In this document: in pieces, positions 46,397 to 54,182 of the stretch
How the letters are laid out: each line of letters begins with the position of its first letter
How positions within the stretch are numbered: the first letter of the stretch is position 1
NCBI RefSeq assembly: GCF_003148465.1
Contig: NZ_QGGI01000001.1
Coordinates: 95,170 to 159,169 of the forward strand
Origin: Oceanotoga teriensis
Lineage (GTDB): Bacteria; Thermotogota; Thermotogae; Petrotogales; Petrotogaceae
Reading direction: 5' to 3'
Length of the DNA stretch: 64,000 bases
Made by a program: the position numbers and the translations under genes
Notes under the pieces: generated by a model
Seen by the model: the letters and a program-made list of their open reading frames with translations, nothing else
Told to the model about the DNA's origin: nothing
The model's database searches: none

Positions 46397-47494
46397 TCAA
46401 TATTTATATTCTTCAAGAAGATATTCATAATCATCAAACCAAAATGCTCTTGGATTTCTTTTATATATCATAAATTTATTTTTATTTTCTTCTTTATTAG
46501 CTCTATGGTATTTAAACATTATTTTATCTTTTGTAATTCCACTTATTTCTATTTTTCCTGTTTCATGAGACATGACAAATTTTGGCCTTTTTGCAAGACC
46601 TGATATTTCTTCAAGAGCTTTTAAAAAATTTATATATCCTTTTTCAACTTCTAATGCAAAAGGTTTATTACCCATTACAGGTCTATTTTGAAAAACATAG
46701 TATGGTGGGACTCCAATATAAGATAGTTTTTGGAATAATTTTTTTAATGTTTTTACATCATCATTTATTCCTTTAAGTATAGGTGTTTGATTTACAACTT
46801 GTGCACCATTCTTTAATAAAATATCTATGGATTTAATAGTATAATGTGTAATTTCATTGGGATGGTTTATATGAAGCATAAAATATAATCTTTTTTCTGG
46901 AGTAGAATAATTTTGAATTAAACTATGTAAAGTTTCATCTTCAATAATTCTAAAAGGATAAAATGCAGGTAATTTTGTTCCTATTCTTATTATTTTAATA
47001 TGATCTATATCTCTCAACTTTTTTATTATATCATTCAATTTTTTTGTAGATAATAAAAGCGGATCTCCGCCTGTCAATAAAACATTAGTAATTTCTTTAT
47101 TTTCTTCTATATATCTTAAATCTGTAGTTATATCTCTCGTTACTTCATCACCTATATTTATGAATAATCTTTTTCTAAAACAAAATCTACAAAATCCACC
47201 ACATAAATCGTTTATAAGCAATAAAACAGTATCTTTATATTTATGCTGCAATCCTTTGGATATAGTATAAGAATATTCTTTTGAAGCATCTTCAATACCC
47301 CATTCATCTAATTCTGAATACTGTGGAATAATAATCTTTCTTATTGGATCATTTTCATCTTTCCAGTCTATAAGTGATAAATAATATTCATTAGATCTAA
47401 ATTTGTATTTTTTTGATACCTCTTTTAATTTTTCTAATTTCTCTTTAGATATATACTTCATATTATCAAGTTTATGTATATAATTTACTTTCAA
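46397..47494 (-). CDS. KamA-family radical SAM protein (lysine 2,3-aminomutase-like)
   Basis: 365 aa; the cluster motif CGGFCRFCFRKR (Cx3Cx2C) and the family motif LLTGGDPLLL. Confidence 0.7.
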   Translation of the reverse strand: MKVNYIHKLDNMKYISKEKLEKLKEVSKKYKFRSNEYYLSLIDWKDENDPIRKIIIPQYSELDEWGIEDASKEYSYTISKGLQHKYKDTVLLLINDLCGGFCRFCFRKRLFINIGDEVTRDITTDLRYIEENKEITNVLLTGGDPLLLSTKKLNDIIKKLRDIDHIKIIRIGTKLPAFYPFRIIEDETLHSLIQNYSTPEKRLYFMLHINHPNEITHYTIKSIDILLKNGAQVVNQTPILKGINDDVKTLKKLFQKLSYIGVPPYYVFQNRPVMGNKPFALEVEKGYINFLKALEEISGLAKRPKFVMSHETGKIEISGITKDKIMFKYHRANKEENKNKFMIYKRNPRAFWFDDYEYLLEEYKY

Positions 47495-47527: not shown

Positions 47528-48010
47528 TCAATCTAAATATTTAGATATTAGATCGATTACTTCTTCACTTAATTTTTTTAATAATATAGGATATACTGTT
47601 GAAAAAATAGAATATAATATTGAAGTTATATACATGAAGAATTCTGAATTAATTTTATTAGGAAGTTTTAGTCCAAAAAAATTAATCATCAATAGAAAAC
47701 TAATAAAAGTTGTTAATATTATGATTATATTTTTCAGGATTTTTTTATTTACAGTTTTATAAATAAAAACTGGTAAAAATATTAATAATAAAATACCTAT
47801 ACTTTCAATGACAAAACCAGAAATAAATATTAAAAACAAAAAAACAAATGTATATATTAATGAATATCTTAAGCTTAAAAAGAATATCGGCATAGGCATG
47901 ATAAAACTTATAATATTAGGAGCTATTTTTAAATATTTTAAAGATATAAATAATATATAAAAAAGCCCCGCTAATATAGATGTTTTTATAATTTCATTTT
48001 TTATTTTCAT
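47528..48010 (-). CDS. Hypothetical polytopic membrane protein
   Basis: 160 aa, 4-5 TM helices; lies between the Cys-rich small protein and the KamA-like gene. Confidence 0.35.
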   Translation of the reverse strand: MKIKNEIIKTSILAGLFYILFISLKYLKIAPNIISFIMPMPIFFLSLRYSLIYTFVFLFLIFISGFVIESIGILLLIFLPVFIYKTVNKKILKNIIIILTTFISFLLMINFFGLKLPNKINSEFFMYITSILYSIFSTVYPILLKKLSEEVIDLISKYLD

Positions 48011-48016
48011 ATCATA

Positions 48017-48253
48017 TCAAAAGAAACTACAAATATCTCCACCCATACATTCACATAATGTATCGGCACATACCAAACCACCTAAACATTGTAAACATTC
48101 ACCACAATCATTTCTTCTATAAGTATAGTATCCAGCCTTAAATTCATTAACTTTGCTTTTAAGCTCTTCATCTTTTTTATATTCATCATATAGGTCTTTA
48201 AATTGACCATTTAATATCTTGTTTTTCACATCTTTCATTATTTTCCCCTCCAT
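48017..48253 (-). CDS. Cysteine-rich small protein (7 Cys in the last 27 residues)
   Basis: 73-78 aa; a Lys/Glu-rich N-terminal half, then NDCGECLQCLGGLVCADTLCECMGGDICSFF. Its 5' end overlaps the upstream ORF in another frame; the real start may be MKDVKNK at 48238. Confidence 0.4.
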   Translation of the reverse strand: MEGKIMKDVKNKILNGQFKDLYDEYKKDEELKSKVNEFKAGYYTYRRNDCGECLQCLGGLVCADTLCECMGGDICSFF

Positions 48254-49055
48254 TTAATATAGAAGTTATTTTATATCTATGATAATTGATAGAAAAACTT
48301 AAGAGTTTTTTAACTAAATGTTTATTATGTAAAGTGTATTTTTCATATTCTTCCATAATATCCATTGAACATAGATCATAAGTAAATAAAAGTCTTTCTT
48401 TATCATTAATTTCTAATTCTTGTAAATCTTTAATATCAAAAGAATTTGAAATAGCATTAAATTTTTTTCTTTTAATATCTTTAGAAAAATCATAAATTGA
48501 ATCAACTATATAAATCAAAGTACCTATACTTACTGGCAATGTTGCATTTTGAGCATTAAAAAATTTCTTAAATAATAAGTTCATCAAAAGTTGTGTCGGT
48601 TTTGCATAACAGTCTATATCTAGTCTTGATTTTTCTATTTCATCTTGATATTCCATTAATTTTTCATATTCACATAAAAAATTATTATCATATTCATTTG
48701 AAAGTTTTTCTTTTATTTTTTTTAAAAATTTTAAAGAAATTGGATATCCTTCAAGTTTATAATCTATAAGTTTACCATATATAATTAACAGATTCAAATA
48801 TGAATATTTGTCTAAAAATTCCATTTGATTTGGTCTATATCTCGTTCCAAATTTCATCCATGGACATTTGAATTCTTTTATATCTTTTGTTTCATTTTGC
48901 ATAATAGAAAAAAGAACAACTTCTTTTATTATAGTTGGTCTATATAAATTACCAAAATTTGCCTTTAAATTATGACACATTCCACAATAATGATATAAAT
49001 AATTTCTTCTTTCTTCTTCACTTGGCTTAAAATAAATAGAAATATATCCGTACAT
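48198..49055 (-). CDS. Hypothetical protein (HYCGMCH motif)
   Basis: 285 aa; no recognised family. A possible metal-binding motif HYCGMCH sits near the N-terminus. Confidence 0.4.
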   Translation of the reverse strand: MYGYISIYFKPSEEERRNYLYHYCGMCHNLKANFGNLYRPTIIKEVVLFSIMQNETKDIKEFKCPWMKFGTRYRPNQMEFLDKYSYLNLLIIYGKLIDYKLEGYPISLKFLKKIKEKLSNEYDNNFLCEYEKLMEYQDEIEKSRLDIDCYAKPTQLLMNLLFKKFFNAQNATLPVSIGTLIYIVDSIYDFSKDIKRKKFNAISNSFDIKDLQELEINDKERLLFTYDLCSMDIMEEYEKYTLHNKHLVKKLLSFSINYHRYKITSILNGGENNERCEKQDIKWSI

Positions 49056-49057
49056 AT

Positions 49058-50269
49058 TTACTCCCTAACTTGTATAACTTTTTGACTTTTAAAAGTTATG
49101 TTATTTATTGTAAAACTGAAATTAATATTATATCTTCCAATTTTATCTAAAGTTATTTTTTTTAATTTTTCAAGATCAAATATCTCTTTATTTCCATATC
49201 CAGCTATTCCAACTCTTATTATTTTATCATTTGAATAATTATATATTTCTTCTTCAGTATCAGAAAAAGATACATTAAATGCTATATTTTGAATTATAAA
49301 TCCTTTATCTTCTGGAGATTTATTTTCAACATAACCTTTAAAATATAAATCTTGATTTTTTTCAAATGTACTCATTGTAAAATTATTAATTCCTAATAAA
49401 TCAGTTTTTTCCTCAATTTTATCCATTATATACATATTAAAGTATATGGATTTTTTCAAGCTATTCAAATCTATTAAGACATTATAAATTCCTTTTTTAA
49501 ATTTTTGAGAAAGTTCCATTTCAAATTTTTTATTCTGCATAATAGGAATATTTATGCTTCCTAAATTAAAATTATCTTCATAAATTTTATTGTCTTTTTC
49601 AAAAATACTAATCTTACCATCTAAAGTAGAATTTATTGTATCTTTAGTTATATTTTCTAACTCAAAGTTAATGATAGGTCTTTCAGATATCAAATAAAAA
49701 TCTTCTTTAGTATAAGCATTCAAAGAAAAATCATGTCTATAATCAAAAAATCTTTTTAAAATTATTGAATTTTCATTATACTTAAAAGACGCCCTTATTT
49801 CATAAAGACCTTTATCAAGTTTTGAGATTTCTTTCTCTTTTGATAAATCAAATATGAGTCTCGTTTGAAAAGAATTTAAATCTGTTTCTATTTCTTGAGG
49901 ATATAAGAATGAATATACAACTTTTGAAGTATCTTTTTTTATAATAAAAAAAGAAAAATCTTGTATTTTTACTTTTTTTGTATTATTTCCAGTATTTTGC
50001 ATTTCTACTGTGACATTAATGTTGTCTGGATAATTAAAAATTTCATCATTTCTTAAATAAAATGATATTCCATCTATTACAACATTATATTCTAAATTAA
50101 ATTTATTGAGTTTTGGCCCTATAAATATAAAAAATAACGTAGCTAAAGATAAAAATATCAATAATAAAAATGTTATTTTTTTTGTATTTTTATATTTGTT
50201 TTTTCTTTTTTTATTCTTTTCTTCATCAACTTTTTTCCATTCTTCTGGACTTTTTGAATAATAATTCAT
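49058..50269 (-). CDS. Hypothetical membrane-anchored protein with large extracytoplasmic domain
   Basis: 403 aa; a Lys-rich cytoplasmic N-terminus (KNKKRKNKYKNTKK), a single TM (ITFLLLIFLSLATLFFIFI) and ~350 aa of beta-rich, Asn-rich sequence. Confidence 0.4.
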   Translation of the reverse strand: MNYYSKSPEEWKKVDEEKNKKRKNKYKNTKKITFLLLIFLSLATLFFIFIGPKLNKFNLEYNVVIDGISFYLRNDEIFNYPDNINVTVEMQNTGNNTKKVKIQDFSFFIIKKDTSKVVYSFLYPQEIETDLNSFQTRLIFDLSKEKEISKLDKGLYEIRASFKYNENSIILKRFFDYRHDFSLNAYTKEDFYLISERPIINFELENITKDTINSTLDGKISIFEKDNKIYEDNFNLGSINIPIMQNKKFEMELSQKFKKGIYNVLIDLNSLKKSIYFNMYIMDKIEEKTDLLGINNFTMSTFEKNQDLYFKGYVENKSPEDKGFIIQNIAFNVSFSDTEEEIYNYSNDKIIRVGIAGYGNKEIFDLEKLKKITLDKIGRYNINFSFTINNITFKSQKVIQVRE

Positions 50270-50278
50270 AAACCACCT

Positions 50279-51331
50279 CTAAAAATATAATAAACCCTTT
50301 TCTTTAAGATCTTTAAATTGTTCTTCTTTAGATATAAAATTAAAATTTTTTATTCTTTCGAAGTTTAAAGTATTATTTAATAAATATTTTTTTACATCAT
50401 CATTTAATATTAAGCAATCAAAAATACTAAAAAATCCTTTTTTACCAGTATTCATACATTCTTTGCAACCTTTACCTTTACAATTTTTACAAATACCTGG
50501 TAATAATCTTTGATTGAGTATCATGTCTGTAAACTTTATTATTTCATTTTTAATACCCATAGAATAAAATCTATTTAAAACATTTTCAATACTATCAGAG
50601 TGTACAGTACTAAAAACATAATGACCCGTAGTTATTGTTTCAAATAAAAATTTTGCATATGATCTTTCTCTTATCTCACCAACAGAAATTAATTCTGGAT
50701 CTTGTCTTAAAATATACTTTAAAATGTCAATACTTTCATTATTAAGTAAAGATATTTGAACTATCCCAGATATGATATATTCAATCGGATTATCAATAGT
50801 GTGTATTTTCATTTTATCTTTTAATTTATTCAAATAATAATTTAAAGTTGTTGTTTTTCCCGATCCTGTAGGACCAGAAAATATTATAAGTCCACTTTTA
50901 TTATTTACATATTCTAATATCTTTTTTTCTATTTTTGTAGGAATATTTATATTTATTTTTTCAATATTTTTTAATTTTCTCATAACACAACTTATACCAA
51001 AAAAAGATTTCATAAATGAGACTCTATAGAAATTATCATTTAATTCGAAAGAACCATCTAAATTTTTAAAGTCTTTTATTATGTCTAATCCACAATTTAT
51101 AAGTATTCTATTTAAAAGTCTATTATATTGATTTTTAAATATTTTTTCTATTTTTATGAGATCTCCATTATATCTAACACTTATATCAACAAAATCTTTA
51201 TGAGGAGTAAAATGATAGTCTGTTATTCCATCATTATTCAACTCATAAAAAATTTTATTATATATATTATCATTATCTTCATTCTTTAAATTTTTAATGT
51301 TTATATTTTTATTCGCCCATAACATTTTCAT
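50279..51331 (-). CDS. Type II/IV secretion-system ATPase superfamily protein (PilT/GspE-like, minimal, C-terminal tetracysteine)
   Basis: 350 aa; Walker A FSGPTGSGKTTTL, an Asp box DPELISVGEIRE, a His box TGHYVFSTVHSDS, and a C-terminal CKNCKGKGCKEC zinc-ribbon-like motif; starts within or just after ftsZ. Confidence 0.7.
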   Translation of the reverse strand: MKMLWANKNINIKNLKNEDNDNIYNKIFYELNNDGITDYHFTPHKDFVDISVRYNGDLIKIEKIFKNQYNRLLNRILINCGLDIIKDFKNLDGSFELNDNFYRVSFMKSFFGISCVMRKLKNIEKININIPTKIEKKILEYVNNKSGLIIFSGPTGSGKTTTLNYYLNKLKDKMKIHTIDNPIEYIISGIVQISLLNNESIDILKYILRQDPELISVGEIRERSYAKFLFETITTGHYVFSTVHSDSIENVLNRFYSMGIKNEIIKFTDMILNQRLLPGICKNCKGKGCKECMNTGKKGFFSIFDCLILNDDVKKYLLNNTLNFERIKNFNFISKEEQFKDLKEKGLLYF

Positions 51332-52415
51332 TTAAAAACTTTTCAAGTTTTGACATTTCATCAGTAACTATCGTTTTTCCAAACTGTCTGTATAAAGCTG
51401 GTTGTTCATAAAGATCAAGATAATTATCTTCTCCAGGTAATTTATCATATCCAGAGGCAACAACTGTAACTTTTATAACTTCTGGTGGCATTTCAACTAT
51501 AGAAATTCCCATTTTGAGTTTAGCATCATCAATTGCATAAGATCTAAGAATTTCATTTATTATTCTAACATCTTCGGTTGTAGGATTCTTACCAGCTATG
51601 TTTACCAATGCAGCATTAGCATTTCTAACTTGATCTTCAAGTAATTTTGAATTCAATGCATTTTTTATAGCATCTTCAGCTCTTCTTTCACCTTTTGCCA
51701 AACCTATTCCAAGCATAGCTGAACCTTTTATTTTTAAAACAGATGCGACATCAGCAAAATCAAGATTTATCATTCCTGGTTTAGTTATCAAATCTGATAT
51801 ACCTGTTATAGCTTGGTATAAAATATCATCAGCTTTTTCAAAAGCTTTATCTATAGGTATATTTTCTCCATTATCTATTAATTTATCATTTGAAATTTTT
51901 ATTAAACTATCAACAGAATGTTTTAAATTTTGTAAACCATTTAATGCCAATCTCTCTTTTGTAGATCCTTCAAAATGAAAAGGCATTGTAACTATGGCAA
52001 CAGTTAAAATTCCCATATTAGTAGCAATATCAGAAATAACTGGTGCTGCACCAGTTCCAGTTCCACCGCCAAGTCCAGCCGTTATAAACAGTAGATCTGT
52101 TCCTTTAAGAATTTCTTTAATTTCATCAGTACTTTCAATCGCAGAATCTCTCCCCACTGAAGGATCTCCACCAGCACCTAATCCTCTTGTCAATTCTTTT
52201 CCAAGTTGGATTTTAGACTCTGTTGGATTGGATTCTAAAACTTGGACATCTGTATTAGCTGCTATAAGTTCGACATCTTCAACACCTTTTGTCACCATTC
52301 TTTGTATTGCGTTATTTCCAGCTCCACCGACTCCAATAACTTTTATAGTATAATGAGATTTCTTAGAAAATATATTTTTAGTTTTATCATTATCATCAAT
52401 TTCAAAAGGCATCAT
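51309..52415 (-). CDS. ftsZ: Cell division GTPase FtsZ
   Basis: The track ORF extends to 52535 through an out-of-context poly-Lys stretch; the real start is likely MMPFEID after GGGGGTGA. GVGGAGNNA and the T7 loop AGLGGGTGTGAAPV. Confidence 0.9.
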   Translation of the reverse strand: MMPFEIDDNDKTKNIFSKKSHYTIKVIGVGGAGNNAIQRMVTKGVEDVELIAANTDVQVLESNPTESKIQLGKELTRGLGAGGDPSVGRDSAIESTDEIKEILKGTDLLFITAGLGGGTGTGAAPVISDIATNMGILTVAIVTMPFHFEGSTKERLALNGLQNLKHSVDSLIKISNDKLIDNGENIPIDKAFEKADDILYQAITGISDLITKPGMINLDFADVASVLKIKGSAMLGIGLAKGERRAEDAIKNALNSKLLEDQVRNANAALVNIAGKNPTTEDVRIINEILRSYAIDDAKLKMGISIVEMPPEVIKVTVVASGYDKLPGEDNYLDLYEQPALYRQFGKTIVTDEMSKLEKFLNENVMGE

Positions 52416-53703
52416 CTTCACCCCCGGTGAGTTTTTGCATGATCGATTTAAAAAAACCTTTTTTATTTTTTTCTTTTTTTTCTTTCTTATCTTGAGTTGG
52501 TTCAACATTTTGATTAGTATTGTCAACCGATTCAATCATATCAAGTCTAAATCTTTCAACGATACCAAAAACTGGCAAAAATTCAGGATCATTTTTTAAT
52601 TCATCGGGAACTTCATAAAACATGTTCAAAGTAAGATTTCCTTTTCTAAAATTACTTCCCATCAAATCTTTAATAGTCATATCAACATTTTTAAGATTAG
52701 AGCCTCCTCCAGTTATAACAATTCCTCCTTGAAGTGCTCCAACTTCTGATGTTTTTTCATATCCGATTTTTGAAAGTTCTCCATTAAGTCTACTTATTAT
52801 TTCTCTTATTCTTGCAAATACTATTTTATTTAAAAGATTTTGTGAAACATATGAGTAACCACTACCAGATATCAATTCAAAGTCTATTTTTTTTATAGTT
52901 TTAGTATCTCTAAGACATACAGCTTCTTCAACTAAAAGTCTATGAGCTTCATCTTCCGAGGTTTTAAGGACATTACAAATATCTTTTAAAACATATTTCA
53001 TACCATAAGAAAAAGCATAATACAATTTTGGTATACCATTTTTAAATATTACAATTCTACACATATGATAACCAAAATCTATAACAGTTACTCCTATATC
53101 TCTATCATTAGCATTTGTAACCGCATATGCCGCAGACAAAGCCGAATCATAAATTGGTATTTGTGAATCAACTATTATATTTTTAAACACATTTATTAAT
53201 AGAGCAAATGAATTTTCAGGTACCCAAACAATATTTAATGAAGTACTTAATGATTCTTGAACAAAAAAAGATATAGGATTTCTAACGCTTTTATTATCCA
53301 GTATGAATTTCATAAATTTTGAATCAAGAATAATCTTAGATTCATCTGTATATTTTGATACTATATGATTTTTTATTTTTTTCAAGTCTGAATCTTTAAT
53401 TTCTTTTTTCTGAGAATATTCTGCAGTATAATTTTCTTGATCTATATACAAATTGTTTGTAGAATATCCTATCGCAACTTCAACATTTTTAGTCTTTTTA
53501 GGCAATTCATTTTGAAAAGAGTTTATTATTGAAGTTATAGTTTGTCTTATCGCTTCAACATCTTGAATTTCTCCATTTATAATTCCATCAGATTTTATTT
53601 TTTTATAATTTAAAGGTTTAAATTTATCATTTTCATATTCAAAAAGAATACCTTTTGTATAATAACTACCTATATCTAAACCTATTAAATACTCTTTAGC
53701 CAT
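52402..53703 (-). CDS. ftsA: Cell division protein FtsA
   Basis: 433 aa, actin-like ATPase; LIGLDIGSYYTK and GGIVITGGGSNL. Confidence 0.85.
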   Translation of the reverse strand: MAKEYLIGLDIGSYYTKGILFEYENDKFKPLNYKKIKSDGIINGEIQDVEAIRQTITSIINSFQNELPKKTKNVEVAIGYSTNNLYIDQENYTAEYSQKKEIKDSDLKKIKNHIVSKYTDESKIILDSKFMKFILDNKSVRNPISFFVQESLSTSLNIVWVPENSFALLINVFKNIIVDSQIPIYDSALSAAYAVTNANDRDIGVTVIDFGYHMCRIVIFKNGIPKLYYAFSYGMKYVLKDICNVLKTSEDEAHRLLVEEAVCLRDTKTIKKIDFELISGSGYSYVSQNLLNKIVFARIREIISRLNGELSKIGYEKTSEVGALQGGIVITGGGSNLKNVDMTIKDLMGSNFRKGNLTLNMFYEVPDELKNDPEFLPVFGIVERFRLDMIESVDNTNQNVEPTQDKKEKKEKNKKGFFKSIMQKLTGGEDDAF

Positions 53704-53723: not shown

Positions 53724-54182
53724 CTATTCTTTAAACAACTCAGAGTTTATTAGAGTATAATTTCCTTTACTTAAATTCTCTAAAGTATTCTTTTCGAAAT
53801 ACTTTTTCAAATCTGCTTTTTCATAAAATTTTATACTAATCTTATTATAACAAATTATTTCTTTTTTTTGAAAATCTACTCTTATTATATCCTGTAGTAT
53901 TAATATACTTTTAACAATTTCTAATTCTGAATCCTTATCATCGCTAAAGATTATTTCTAAAGCATCAGGATAATGAACATCGCTTATAGCAACTACATCG
54001 TCCATAAAATTATAATAATAAAACCTTTGATTATTCTTAACAGTATATATATAATCCTTTTTTAAAAAAATTCCTTCATTTTTATAAAAAGGTGCCCCCT
54101 TGGGAACAAGGGGGAATATTATTTTTATTATCGAAAGAATGTATATTACAGTTATAAGAACTATCAAGAAAAAAGGTTTCAT
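53724..54182 (-). CDS. Hypothetical N-terminally anchored protein upstream of ftsA (FtsQ/DivIB-like position)
   Basis: 152 aa; one N-terminal TM, then a small soluble domain. It occupies the ftsQ slot of the ftsQAZ arrangement, but it is much shorter than FtsQ and has no recognisable POTRA domain. Confidence 0.3.
   Translation of the reverse strand: MKPFFLIVLITVIYILSIIKIIFPLVPKGAPFYKNEGIFLKKDYIYTVKNNQRFYYYNFMDDVVAISDVHYPDALEIIFSDDKDSELEIVKSILILQDIIRVDFQKKEIICYNKISIKFYEKADLKKYFEKNTLENLSKGNYTLINSELFKE

Follow-up and report, generated by a model that had tools for sequence, protein, structure and literature searches.

The 64,000-nucleotide (nt) stretch of Oceanotoga teriensis DNA analysed here, called the window below (contig NZ_QGGI01000001.1, positions 95,170 to 159,169; GC content ~26%), carries directly downstream of the cell-division genes ftsA and ftsZ five co-oriented genes, which code for a secretion-type ATPase, a bitopic protein of 403 amino acids (aa), a protein of the DUF5685 family, a Cys-rich mini-protein and a polytopic membrane protein. 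The best explanation that we can offer for this arrangement, one that we favour tentatively and hold to be a little short of probable, is that it comprises two evolutionarily separable modules lodged in a housekeeping array: Module A, a pilus-type motor with its membrane partner, and Module B, a putatively prenylating trio. A preliminary description of the same DNA had read the five genes as a single division- or envelope-associated ATPase machine; the synteny that it expected and a partner distinct from the PilM/N/O and GspL/M proteins were both found, whereas the single machine is not borne out, because the trio is autonomous elsewhere, without the ATPase or ftsZ (0 of 80 loci), and because Marinitoga splits the gene set. 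The genes concerned are the following:

50279-51331, minus strand: secretion-type ATPase, 350 aa (Module A)
49058-50269, minus strand: bitopic protein, 403 aa (Module A, partner)
48198-49055, minus strand: DUF5685 protein, 285 aa (Module B, putative enzyme)
48017-48253, minus strand: Cys-rich mini-protein, 78 aa as an open reading frame (ORF) (Module B, partner)
47528-48010, minus strand: polytopic membrane protein, 160 aa (Module B, third gene by position)
51309-52415, minus strand: ftsZ (context), 368 aa, with Tubulin and FtsZ_C matches
52402-53703, minus strand: ftsA (context), with a match to PF14450 (FtsA)

The separability of the two modules is apparent outside Thermotogota, where a scan of metagenomes with a single peptide pattern, GRW[IV]YxIDA, yielded 80 DUF5685 loci. 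Among the 53 distinct metagenomic loci with enough sequence, 50 have an ORF with a Cys-rich tail adjoining the DUF5685 gene on its downstream side, the two genes often overlapping, and a hydrophobic ORF of 140-215 aa comes next in 40 of the 43 loci whose sequence extends far enough to hold a third gene. An HPD-bearing J-domain is found in 39 of the 50 tail ORFs, and 40 of the 50 end in -CC. The T2SSE Walker A and the FtsZ signature were absent from all 80 metagenomic loci, with the Thermotogota control loci scoring positive. In Firmicutes metagenomes the trio of DUF5685, Cys-tail and membrane protein is thus autonomous. Many longer DUF5685 proteins are, moreover, fusions to a C-terminal hydrophobic segment and a Cys string. 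What we observe is a conserved enzyme-like protein that has a Cys-rich tail as its obligatory partner, encoded separately or within the same polypeptide, and that is usually followed by a small membrane protein. The upstream neighbours of the metagenomic trio vary; a yabO-like S4 gene, considered as a constant upstream neighbour, was seen at 0 of 57 loci and was dropped as a candidate.

Within Thermotogota, the order pfkB-CBS-MiaB-like-aminotransferase IV-DciA-gyrB-~155 aa-ftsA-ftsZ-ATPase-~400 aa-DUF5685-Cys ORF-~160-aa membrane ORF is found in Petrotoga mexicana, Defluviitoga and Tepiditoga spiralis, and the Oceanotoga window has the same upstream genes, from pfkB to ftsZ, as these three genera. 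Three more loci from Thermotogota metagenome-assembled genomes, which were checked only for the ftsZ signature, the ATPase Walker A and the DUF5685-Cys ORF pair, contain the signature and the pair, and at least two of them the Walker A (a variant form in one). A scan of genome contigs, for which overly specific patterns had been drawn from the Petrotogales DUF5685 alignment, returned five Thermotogota loci only. The overlap of the ftsZ stop (51309) with the ATPase start, which had been noticed earlier and amounts to 23 nt in Oceanotoga, recurs in Defluviitoga, Tepiditoga and Marinitoga, i.e., in four genera altogether. The genes are thus syntenic next to ftsAZ across Petrotogales (Petrotoga, Defluviitoga and Tepiditoga, with the ATPase-~414-aa pair kept in Marinitoga) rather than scattered among related genomes, and the recurrence of this order is not due to chance. 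The ATPase and its partner gene part company with the trio in Marinitoga: in Marinitoga sp. 1137 the ATPase and a 414-aa gene precede an unrelated membrane ORF, with no match to the Petrotogaceae 160-aa protein, and CRISPR-Cas genes, with no DUF5685 at the locus; in M. litoralis the ATPase, a 413-aa gene and a DUF5685 gene are followed by convergent genes, with no Cys ORF. The CRISPR-Cas operon of Marinitoga sp. 1137 (L004 11442-17140; Cas6, a CXXC_CXXC large subunit, DevR/Cas7, Cas5 and Cas3) occupies the position of DUF5685 and the Cys ORF in its relatives. In Petrotogales, Modules A and B are adjacent and probably co-transcribed.

The 285-aa protein had been thought, like the other three non-ATPase products, to belong to no recognized family. 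This proved incorrect for the 285-aa protein itself, which matches PF18937 (DUF5685) with 73.4 bits against a cut-off of 26.7, over profile positions 1-262 of 272. For the others it stands: neither the 403-aa nor the 160-aa protein has a Pfam or NCBIfam match, and no model of these collections covers the tail or membrane proteins (the mini-protein and the J-proteins being scanned). A profile search with DUF5685 recovered 2113 cluster representatives at E<1e-3. Since only five of these, which appear to be the close relatives from Thermotogota, score below 1e-30, this clade seems to form an outlying branch within a large family. The Oceanotoga protein displays the motif YHYCGMCH, the invariant C24, C27 and C64, D98 in a first acidic motif DYKLE, and a second motif D185-SIY-D189-FSK-D193. 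In an alignment of 48 family members, C25, C28, C69, D103-x3-D107, E152, Y197, D200-x3-D204-x3-D208 and N215 are invariant or nearly so (D107 and D208 less strictly); only three Cys are invariant, and there is no conserved fourth ligand. Most members have a canonical DDxxD in the first motif, as in YYKLCDDVED or MLDDKYDE, and the second, D-x3-D-x3-D, is spaced like the NSE/DTE metal triad known from class I enzymes. The predicted structure appears to adopt the isoprenoid-synthase alpha fold, with ~210 residues aligning at 8-12% identity, and DUF5685 probably has a class I isoprenoid-synthase fold. Taking the predicted fold, DDxxD, D-x3-D-x3-D and the three-Cys site together, we think that it is probably an isoprenoid-transferring metalloenzyme, dependent on Mg2+ and diphosphate and furnished with a three-Cys metal site of its own. 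One protein of this family, P0224 from a 22-kb ENA contig, is 1345 aa long, with DUF5685 at the N-terminus and no Pfam match in the other ~1050 residues.

The mini-protein, whose gene overlaps the 3' end of the DUF5685 gene, has seven Cys in its final 29 residues (tail CGECLQCLGGLVCADTLCECMGGDICSFF), in keeping with the earlier account of a 73-78-aa protein ending in seven cysteines; on alignment with its orthologues we propose M6 at 48238 as its start, which makes 73 aa the probable length. It directly follows DUF5685 at eight Petrotogaceae loci, where it ends in CSFF, CNWF, CRWF, CSCF or CRCI. The placement of a Cys at position -4 or in a terminal CC/CXC, as in C-terminal prenylation substrates of the CaaX and Rab types, is shared by the two groups, with C-x-x-F/I in 8 of 8 Petrotogaceae and -CC at the 40 Firmicute loci mentioned above; the a1/a2 residues of the mini-protein ends are not aliphatic in the classical sense. 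A contig of Firmicute-like character has, overlapping the DUF5685 stop, a gene for a J-domain/TPR protein that terminates in LICADCCCECMGGDFISCC, to be set beside the Oceanotoga tail LVCADTLCECMGGDICSFF. The Firmicute tail proteins are J-domain/TPR proteins of 200-230 aa, whereas the Petrotogaceae mini-protein has no J-domain and retains only a helical head of 45 residues. A hidden Markov model built from the tails of the Firmicute J-proteins scores four Thermotogota mini-proteins at 28.1 (Oceanotoga), 26.1, 20.9 and 13.1 bits, against 10.7 bits for the best of 1000 composition-preserving shuffles; by this sequence criterion the Cys-rich tails are homologous between the phyla. The third gene behaves differently: the 160-aa membrane protein has orthologues with 38-43% identity in Petrotoga, Defluviitoga and Tepiditoga, and BLASTP, hmmsearch and hhalign gave no homology between the Petrotogaceae protein and the Firmicute third gene, so that the link between the groups is positional only. 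In the fused forms, the Cys strings are of the kind ...SSGCC, ...DNSCC, CCDCCDCFDCC... and ...GGCCCS. At one locus in a 5.2-Mb genome (L010 6001-7921), DUF5685 is joined to a long Cys string (CCDLASCGDCGGCCCS), and a gene for a PrsW-family membrane protease begins 20 nt later; PrsW belongs to the CAAX-protease superfamily.

Turning to Module A, the ATPase has a 100% identical counterpart at NCBI, 'GspE/PulE family protein [Oceanotoga teriensis]', and is a member of the T2SSE superfamily (PF00437; 2.7e-53, 181.4 bits, cut-off 24.9). It displays the Walker A GPTGSGKTTTL, a Walker B/Asp region DPELISVGEIRE, the His box TGHYVFSTVHS and a CxxCx4CxxC motif CKNCKGKGCKEC; C281, C284, C289 and C292 as well as the catalytic boxes are invariant in the Petrotogales ATPases. 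Against the family-level models it scores 168.7 bits with PilB (TIGR02538; cut-off 675.65), 160.6 bits with ComGA (NF041000; cut-off 300), the match spanning the whole 267-position profile, 157.5 bits with GspE (TIGR02533; cut-off 630.25) and 109 bits with PilT/PilU (TIGR01420; cut-off 319.1), none of the cut-offs being reached. Matches in the PDB follow the same trend, with Thermus PilF and Geobacter/Vibrio PilB/GspE at 1e-34 to 1e-29 and PilT at ~1e-18, and no AIRNLIRE-like motif, expected in the C-terminal part of a PilT/PilU, was seen on reading the sequence. As both the family scores and the PDB matches favour PilB/GspE, its sequence marks the ATPase as a PilB/GspE/ComGA-type assembly motor of PilT-like length, not a PilT; the earlier reading of GspE/PilB motifs at PilT size was right about motifs and length and wrong in so far as it implied likeness to PilT.

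Relative to full-length GspE/PilB, the Petrotogales clade lacks ~170 N-terminal residues and has ~35 residues deleted between the two CxxC pairs. The N1 domain (T2SSE_N, PF05157), which normally docks such motors to GspL/PilM-type partners, gave no Pfam match. On sequence grounds, then, this is a catalytically intact, hexameric assembly-type secretion ATPase that has lost N1. The clade is distinct, with orthologues at 1e-55 to 1e-91 and the next proteins listed at 1e-42; the next-best relatives P0044 and P0021, entertained as Thermotogales sequences, lie in other phyla, beside dnaA/yidC or T2SSF, and are uninformative. Within the window we found no prepilin-like N-terminus, no second T2SSE Walker A, no evident PilC- or PilD-like membrane ORF and hence none of the usual association with PilC/GspF, a prepilin peptidase or pilins. 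In Thermotoga maritima the gene next to ftsZ would be TM0837, if TM0836 is, as presumed, ftsZ (a search of the literature on TM0836 gave nothing relevant). In the genome paper of Thermotoga sp. RQ7, TM0837 figures as the candidate for pilB (PMC5637354, Table 6), and the pil and competence genes of Thermotoga are reported to be dispersed rather than arranged in operons (PMC5637354). Cryo-tomography of T. maritima has revealed tubes like those of type IV pili or type II secretion systems (T2SS) that span the periplasm, with PilQ and PilA detected (PMC10160955). The absence of pilin, PilC and PilD genes, correctly stated for the locus by the preliminary description, is consequently no argument against a pilus role, seeing that such genes are dispersed in Thermotoga. 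The simplest reading would be that the ATPase is the PilB of the phylum, i.e., a pilB orthologue, and that it powers type IV pilus or T2SS-like tubes, whose other genes would be dispersed elsewhere, rather than being part of the divisome.

The product of the gene 9 nt downstream of the ATPase, the 403-aa partner, combines a conserved cytoplasmic N-terminal peptide, MxYYSKSPEEWKKxDEEK, with a Lys-rich stretch, one transmembrane (TM) helix and a large beta-rich ectodomain. Its gene occupies the same slot at all Petrotogales loci examined, and the syntenic orthologues from six Petrotogales genomes are 30-42% identical, with M1, Y3, S7, P8, E10, W11 and D15 invariant. An AlphaFold2 model, built from two sequences (a word-indexed homologue search gave only two proteins), has a moderate overall predicted local distance difference test score of 65, rising to 70-88 per domain; it predicts a long helix at the N-terminus and, in tandem, three beta-sandwich domains at about 59-177, 199-281 and 301-402. 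The PDB entries that Foldseek matched to this model were all generic sandwiches of the Ig/FnIII type arranged in tandem, among them the C-terminal domains of transglutaminase, RbmA, macroglobulin domains and the Fn domains of C5a peptidase. Given the lack of a family match and the predicted beta-sandwich fold, the protein is not one of the PilM/N/O or GspL/M proteins. Because the ATPase has lost its N1 docking domain and the 403-aa protein is always encoded next to it, we infer that the N-terminal cytoplasmic peptide may dock the ATPase to the membrane. The Thermotogota periplasm is unusually wide, and the three Ig-like domains would reach into it.

For Module B, we propose that the overlapping downstream gene supplies the Cys-rich C-terminal tail on which, or together with which, DUF5685 acts, the mechanism we prefer being S-prenylation of the tail cysteines. 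The predicted fold and Asp motifs, the three-Cys site and the -CC and C-x-x-F/I ends favour a thiol-directed prenyl transfer, as do the juxtamembrane Cys strings of the fusions and the PrsW-family protease gene following one of them. A three-Cys metal site leaves one ligand position open, as in the zinc-dependent thiol alkyltransferases. The prenylated tail protein would be tethered to the membrane beside the small polytopic product of the third gene; in Firmicutes, where the tail protein has a J-domain, the output would be a lipid-anchored Hsp70 co-chaperone. In its strongest form, this proposal would make DUF5685 the founding bacterial protein (cysteine) prenyltransferase built on a class I isoprenoid-synthase fold and lipidating the tails of dedicated partners, a claim that we put forward as a speculative one and consider rather unlikely. 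Such an enzyme would bind a prenyl diphosphate through Mg2+ and offer the open position of its three-Cys metal site to the substrate thiolate; its partners would be the J-domain co-chaperones of Firmicutes and the 73-aa mini-protein of Petrotogaceae, and in Petrotogales, expression of the system would go together with that of an N1-less PilB motor and of the division genes. To our knowledge, endogenous protein prenylation is not an established process in bacteria, and searches of the literature on bacterial prenylation and on J-domain/Cys-string proteins found nothing relevant.

Several observations weigh against this two-module reading, with its pilus motor and its prenylating trio. On the side of Module A, the ATPase misses all the PilB, ComGA and GspE equivalog cut-offs widely, reaching 25-50% of them, and the contact between peptide and ATPase is purely inferential. 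Given the gap of 2 nt between the 403-aa gene and DUF5685, there may be a lineage-specific functional coupling of A and B in Petrotogales; the metagenomic sample, obtained with a single pattern, represents one DUF5685 subfamily only. As regards the fold, the top Foldseek matches of DUF5685 are terpene synthases and geranylgeranyl diphosphate synthase, but they are not significant (best E 0.15); there is no polyprenyl_synt, SQS_PSY or terpene synthase Pfam match at E<=1, the DUF5685 profile gave only noise against the PDB sequences, and the first motif of the Oceanotoga protein is degenerate, with DYKLE instead of DDxxD. The tail has fixed, conserved non-Cys residues (CADxxCECMGGD) and in this looks closer to a folded knuckle binding Zn or Fe-S than to a simple string for lipidation, and the hydrophobic segment between DUF5685 and the Cys string of some fusions could put the two on opposite sides of the membrane. 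Finally, the gene that precedes one DUF5685-Cys-string fusion and overlaps its start codon (L012 5492-7089) is thioredoxin-like (Thioredoxin_2/DsbH-like), a neighbourhood that hints at thiol redox chemistry.

There is an alternative in which the tail is a Zn or iron-sulphur (Fe-S) mini-domain and the three Cys of DUF5685 hold a catalytic cluster with an open site, the two together making or modifying an isoprenoid lipid with no protein being lipidated; in Firmicutes, the J-domain protein would then act like HscB, passing the cluster on with the help of DnaK. Clusters held by three Cys with one open site are known from IspG, IspH and aconitase, in agreement with the three invariant Cys of DUF5685 and their want of a conserved fourth ligand. 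The Cys spacing of the tail is fixed, the non-Cys residues of CADxxCECMGGD are strictly conserved across phyla, the tail starts with a ferredoxin-like CxxCxxC, and one fusion has the thioredoxin-like neighbour; furthermore, fusions of enzymes with cofactor domains are common, whereas those of enzymes with their substrates are rare. In the fused proteins, however, the tails are Cys strings of varied sequence (CCDCCDC..., ...SSGCC) and not a single folded motif, the -CC ends (40 of 50) and C-x-x-F/I ends (8 of 8) lie at positions typical of lipidation signals, and the Petrotogaceae partner has no J-domain. Scans of the mini-protein (NCBIfam) and the J-protein (Pfam/NCBIfam) revealed no Fe-S or zinc-finger family either, the sole NCBIfam match to the tail of the mini-protein being NuoE at E 0.0067, far below the cut-off. 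In its full form we consider this alternative possible though doubtful, and as an account of the trio it is nearly as likely as prenyl transfer. If the mini-protein were instead the precursor of a ribosomally synthesized and post-translationally modified peptide (RiPP), made up of a leader and a core rich in Cys, its tailoring enzymes would be DUF5685 and perhaps a KamA-like radical S-adenosylmethionine (SAM) enzyme, and the 160-aa membrane protein would give immunity or export. A small ORF with a Cys-rich end that overlaps a putative modifying enzyme in the manner of comQ/comX would suit such a cluster, as would the radical SAM gene 33 nt after the membrane gene here and in Petrotoga. Neither the Defluviitoga locus nor that of Tepiditoga has this radical SAM gene, whose product is of the KamA rather than the SPASM type; there is no protease and no ABC exporter, the mini-protein has no NCBIfam match at E<=1 to RiPP precursor models, including SCIFF, and the locus is vertically conserved within a housekeeping array. 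Above all, an identical type of tail closes a J-domain protein of 200-230 aa in Firmicutes, which is not a precursor peptide, and for this reason we rejected the RiPP reading as very improbable.

The single machine of the preliminary description is, in our estimation, also improbable, though less so than the RiPP cluster. It would unite the five genes with ftsAZ in division or in the toga, the ATPase being recruited to the Z-ring or to FtsA, the 403-aa protein bridging to the envelope, and the DUF5685, Cys-rich and membrane proteins serving as accessory parts. The overlap of the ftsZ stop and ATPase start in four genera and the tight, syntenic spacing of the five genes in Petrotogaceae speak in its favour. 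The N-terminal peptide of the 403-aa protein resembles the cytoplasmic peptides through which FtsN binds FtsA and PilN binds PilM, both targets having an actin fold, and FtsA is encoded two genes upstream. On the other hand, the DUF5685 trio is autonomous elsewhere, with none of 80 loci having the ATPase or ftsZ, Marinitoga splits the gene set, and in Thermotoga, a maker of pilus-like tubes, the only gene annotated as a pilB candidate codes for an ATPase of this type. The co-orientation with ftsAZ, which had been taken as a sign of a division role, does not sustain that inference: the array also holds replication and metabolic genes (pfkB, CBS, MiaB-like, aminotransferase, dciA and gyrB), so that linkage to ftsAZ is weak evidence and says little on function. 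We therefore retain the two separable modules as the explanation to be preferred.

As for the remaining features of the locus, all five ORFs lie on the minus strand with the motifs and the tight co-oriented spacing previously described; the junctions 3' of the ATPase are, in order, 9 nt, 2 nt, an overlap, 6 nt and then 33 nt to the radical SAM gene. Promoter scans gave counts matching the shuffled expectation for AT-rich DNA, and terminator scans none that was convincing inside the five-gene stretch. The listed ftsZ ORF (51309-52535) begins at a TTG (52535) 134 nt inside ftsA; we prefer as the start the ATG at 52415 (MMPFEIDD..., 368 aa), which overlaps the ftsA stop by 14 nt and agrees with the ftsA/ftsZ overlaps at related loci. 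The N-terminus of FtsA has a sub-threshold PilM_2 match (E 1.9e-4) that probably reflects the shared actin fold only; it is of note in that the second gene downstream encodes a PilB-type ATPase and that the N-terminal peptide of the 403-aa protein is PilN-like. Between gyrB and ftsA lies a gene for a 152-aa protein with an N-terminal TM helix (53724-54182, minus strand), whose sole match is a weak one to DUF4894 (E 0.04); the slot holds a similar-sized gene in every Petrotogales locus fetched and is the usual place of ftsQ/divIB. Within its coding region is a GC-rich hairpin (54095-54114) with an 8-bp stem (CCCCCTTGGGAACAAGGGGG), which the scan found terminator-like on both strands and which is unusual at 26% GC. 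At the other end, 33 nt downstream of the membrane gene, is the gene for the KamA-family radical SAM protein (46397-47494, minus strand), which with 196.7 bits falls just short of the TIGR00238 cut-off (199.2) and has no match among the specific aminomutase equivalogs; Petrotoga has this slot filled (L001 12080-13192), Defluviitoga and Tepiditoga do not.

If these interpretations are correct, the Oceanotoga ATPase would exemplify a PilB-type motor operating without the N1 docking domain, and the 403-aa bitopic protein with its three predicted Ig-like domains is nominated as a partner that can be tested in Thermotogota. The tight linkage to ftsAZ in a long conserved array is no evidence of a division role. 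DUF5685, with more than 2000 representatives and common in gut Clostridia, gains a testable hypothesis as a prenyl-diphosphate-dependent metalloenzyme coupled to a Cys-rich tail protein; as the searchable literature gives no function for DUF5685/PF18937, its predicted fold and the partner link, wholly computational in basis, appear to be new. Were lipidation to hold true, the trio would be a route for the membrane anchoring of an Hsp70 co-chaperone and a prokaryotic counterpart of farnesylated Ydj1 and the cysteine-string protein.

Compared with known systems, the Oceanotoga ATPase shares with PilB, GspE and ComGA the N2 domain and C-terminal core, Walker A/B, the Asp/His boxes and the tetracysteine zinc motif, and with ComGA, which is also short, a similar size. 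It differs from them in lacking N1, in a zinc loop ~35 residues shorter and in the setting of its gene, which follows ftsZ and is accompanied by that of a bitopic partner with predicted beta-sandwiches instead of genes for PilC, PilM/N/O or GspF/L/M. That partner recalls PilN/GspL in being bitopic, in its short conserved cytoplasmic N-terminal peptide and in the position of its gene beside that of a motor ATPase. PilN/PilO/GspL/GspM consist, however, of a coiled coil and a ferredoxin-like fold, whereas the ectodomain of the 403-aa protein is predicted to form three Ig/FnIII-like beta-sandwiches, with no sequence or fold match to them. DUF5685 stands apart from the class I isoprenoid-synthase enzymes (MoeN5, trans-prenyl diphosphate synthases, squalene/dehydrosqualene synthases and terpene cyclases) by an identity of 8-12% with no profile match, by an extra N-terminal C-x2-C...C site on a helix and beta-hairpin, by Asp motifs ~90-100 residues apart and by its obligatory Cys-rich tail partner. 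By analogy, the arrangement of an enzyme of putative isoprenoid-synthase type followed by an overlapping small ORF resembles that of ComQ-ComX in Bacillus, where ComQ, of the polyprenyl synthase family, modifies a Trp of the secreted pheromone ComX. DUF5685 differs in having no polyprenyl_synt match, and its partner is Cys-rich, not obviously secreted and in Firmicutes a J-domain protein. The eukaryotic protein prenyltransferases, which form an alpha-alpha barrel, and the DHHC enzymes, which are membrane proteins, do not resemble DUF5685. Their substrates are closer in type, by analogy only: the Firmicute union of a J-domain with a C-terminal Cys string is reminiscent of the lipidated J-proteins, namely Ydj1/DNAJA with its farnesylated CaaX and the palmitoylated cysteine-string protein DNAJC5, and of the -CC/-CXC ends of Rab proteins.

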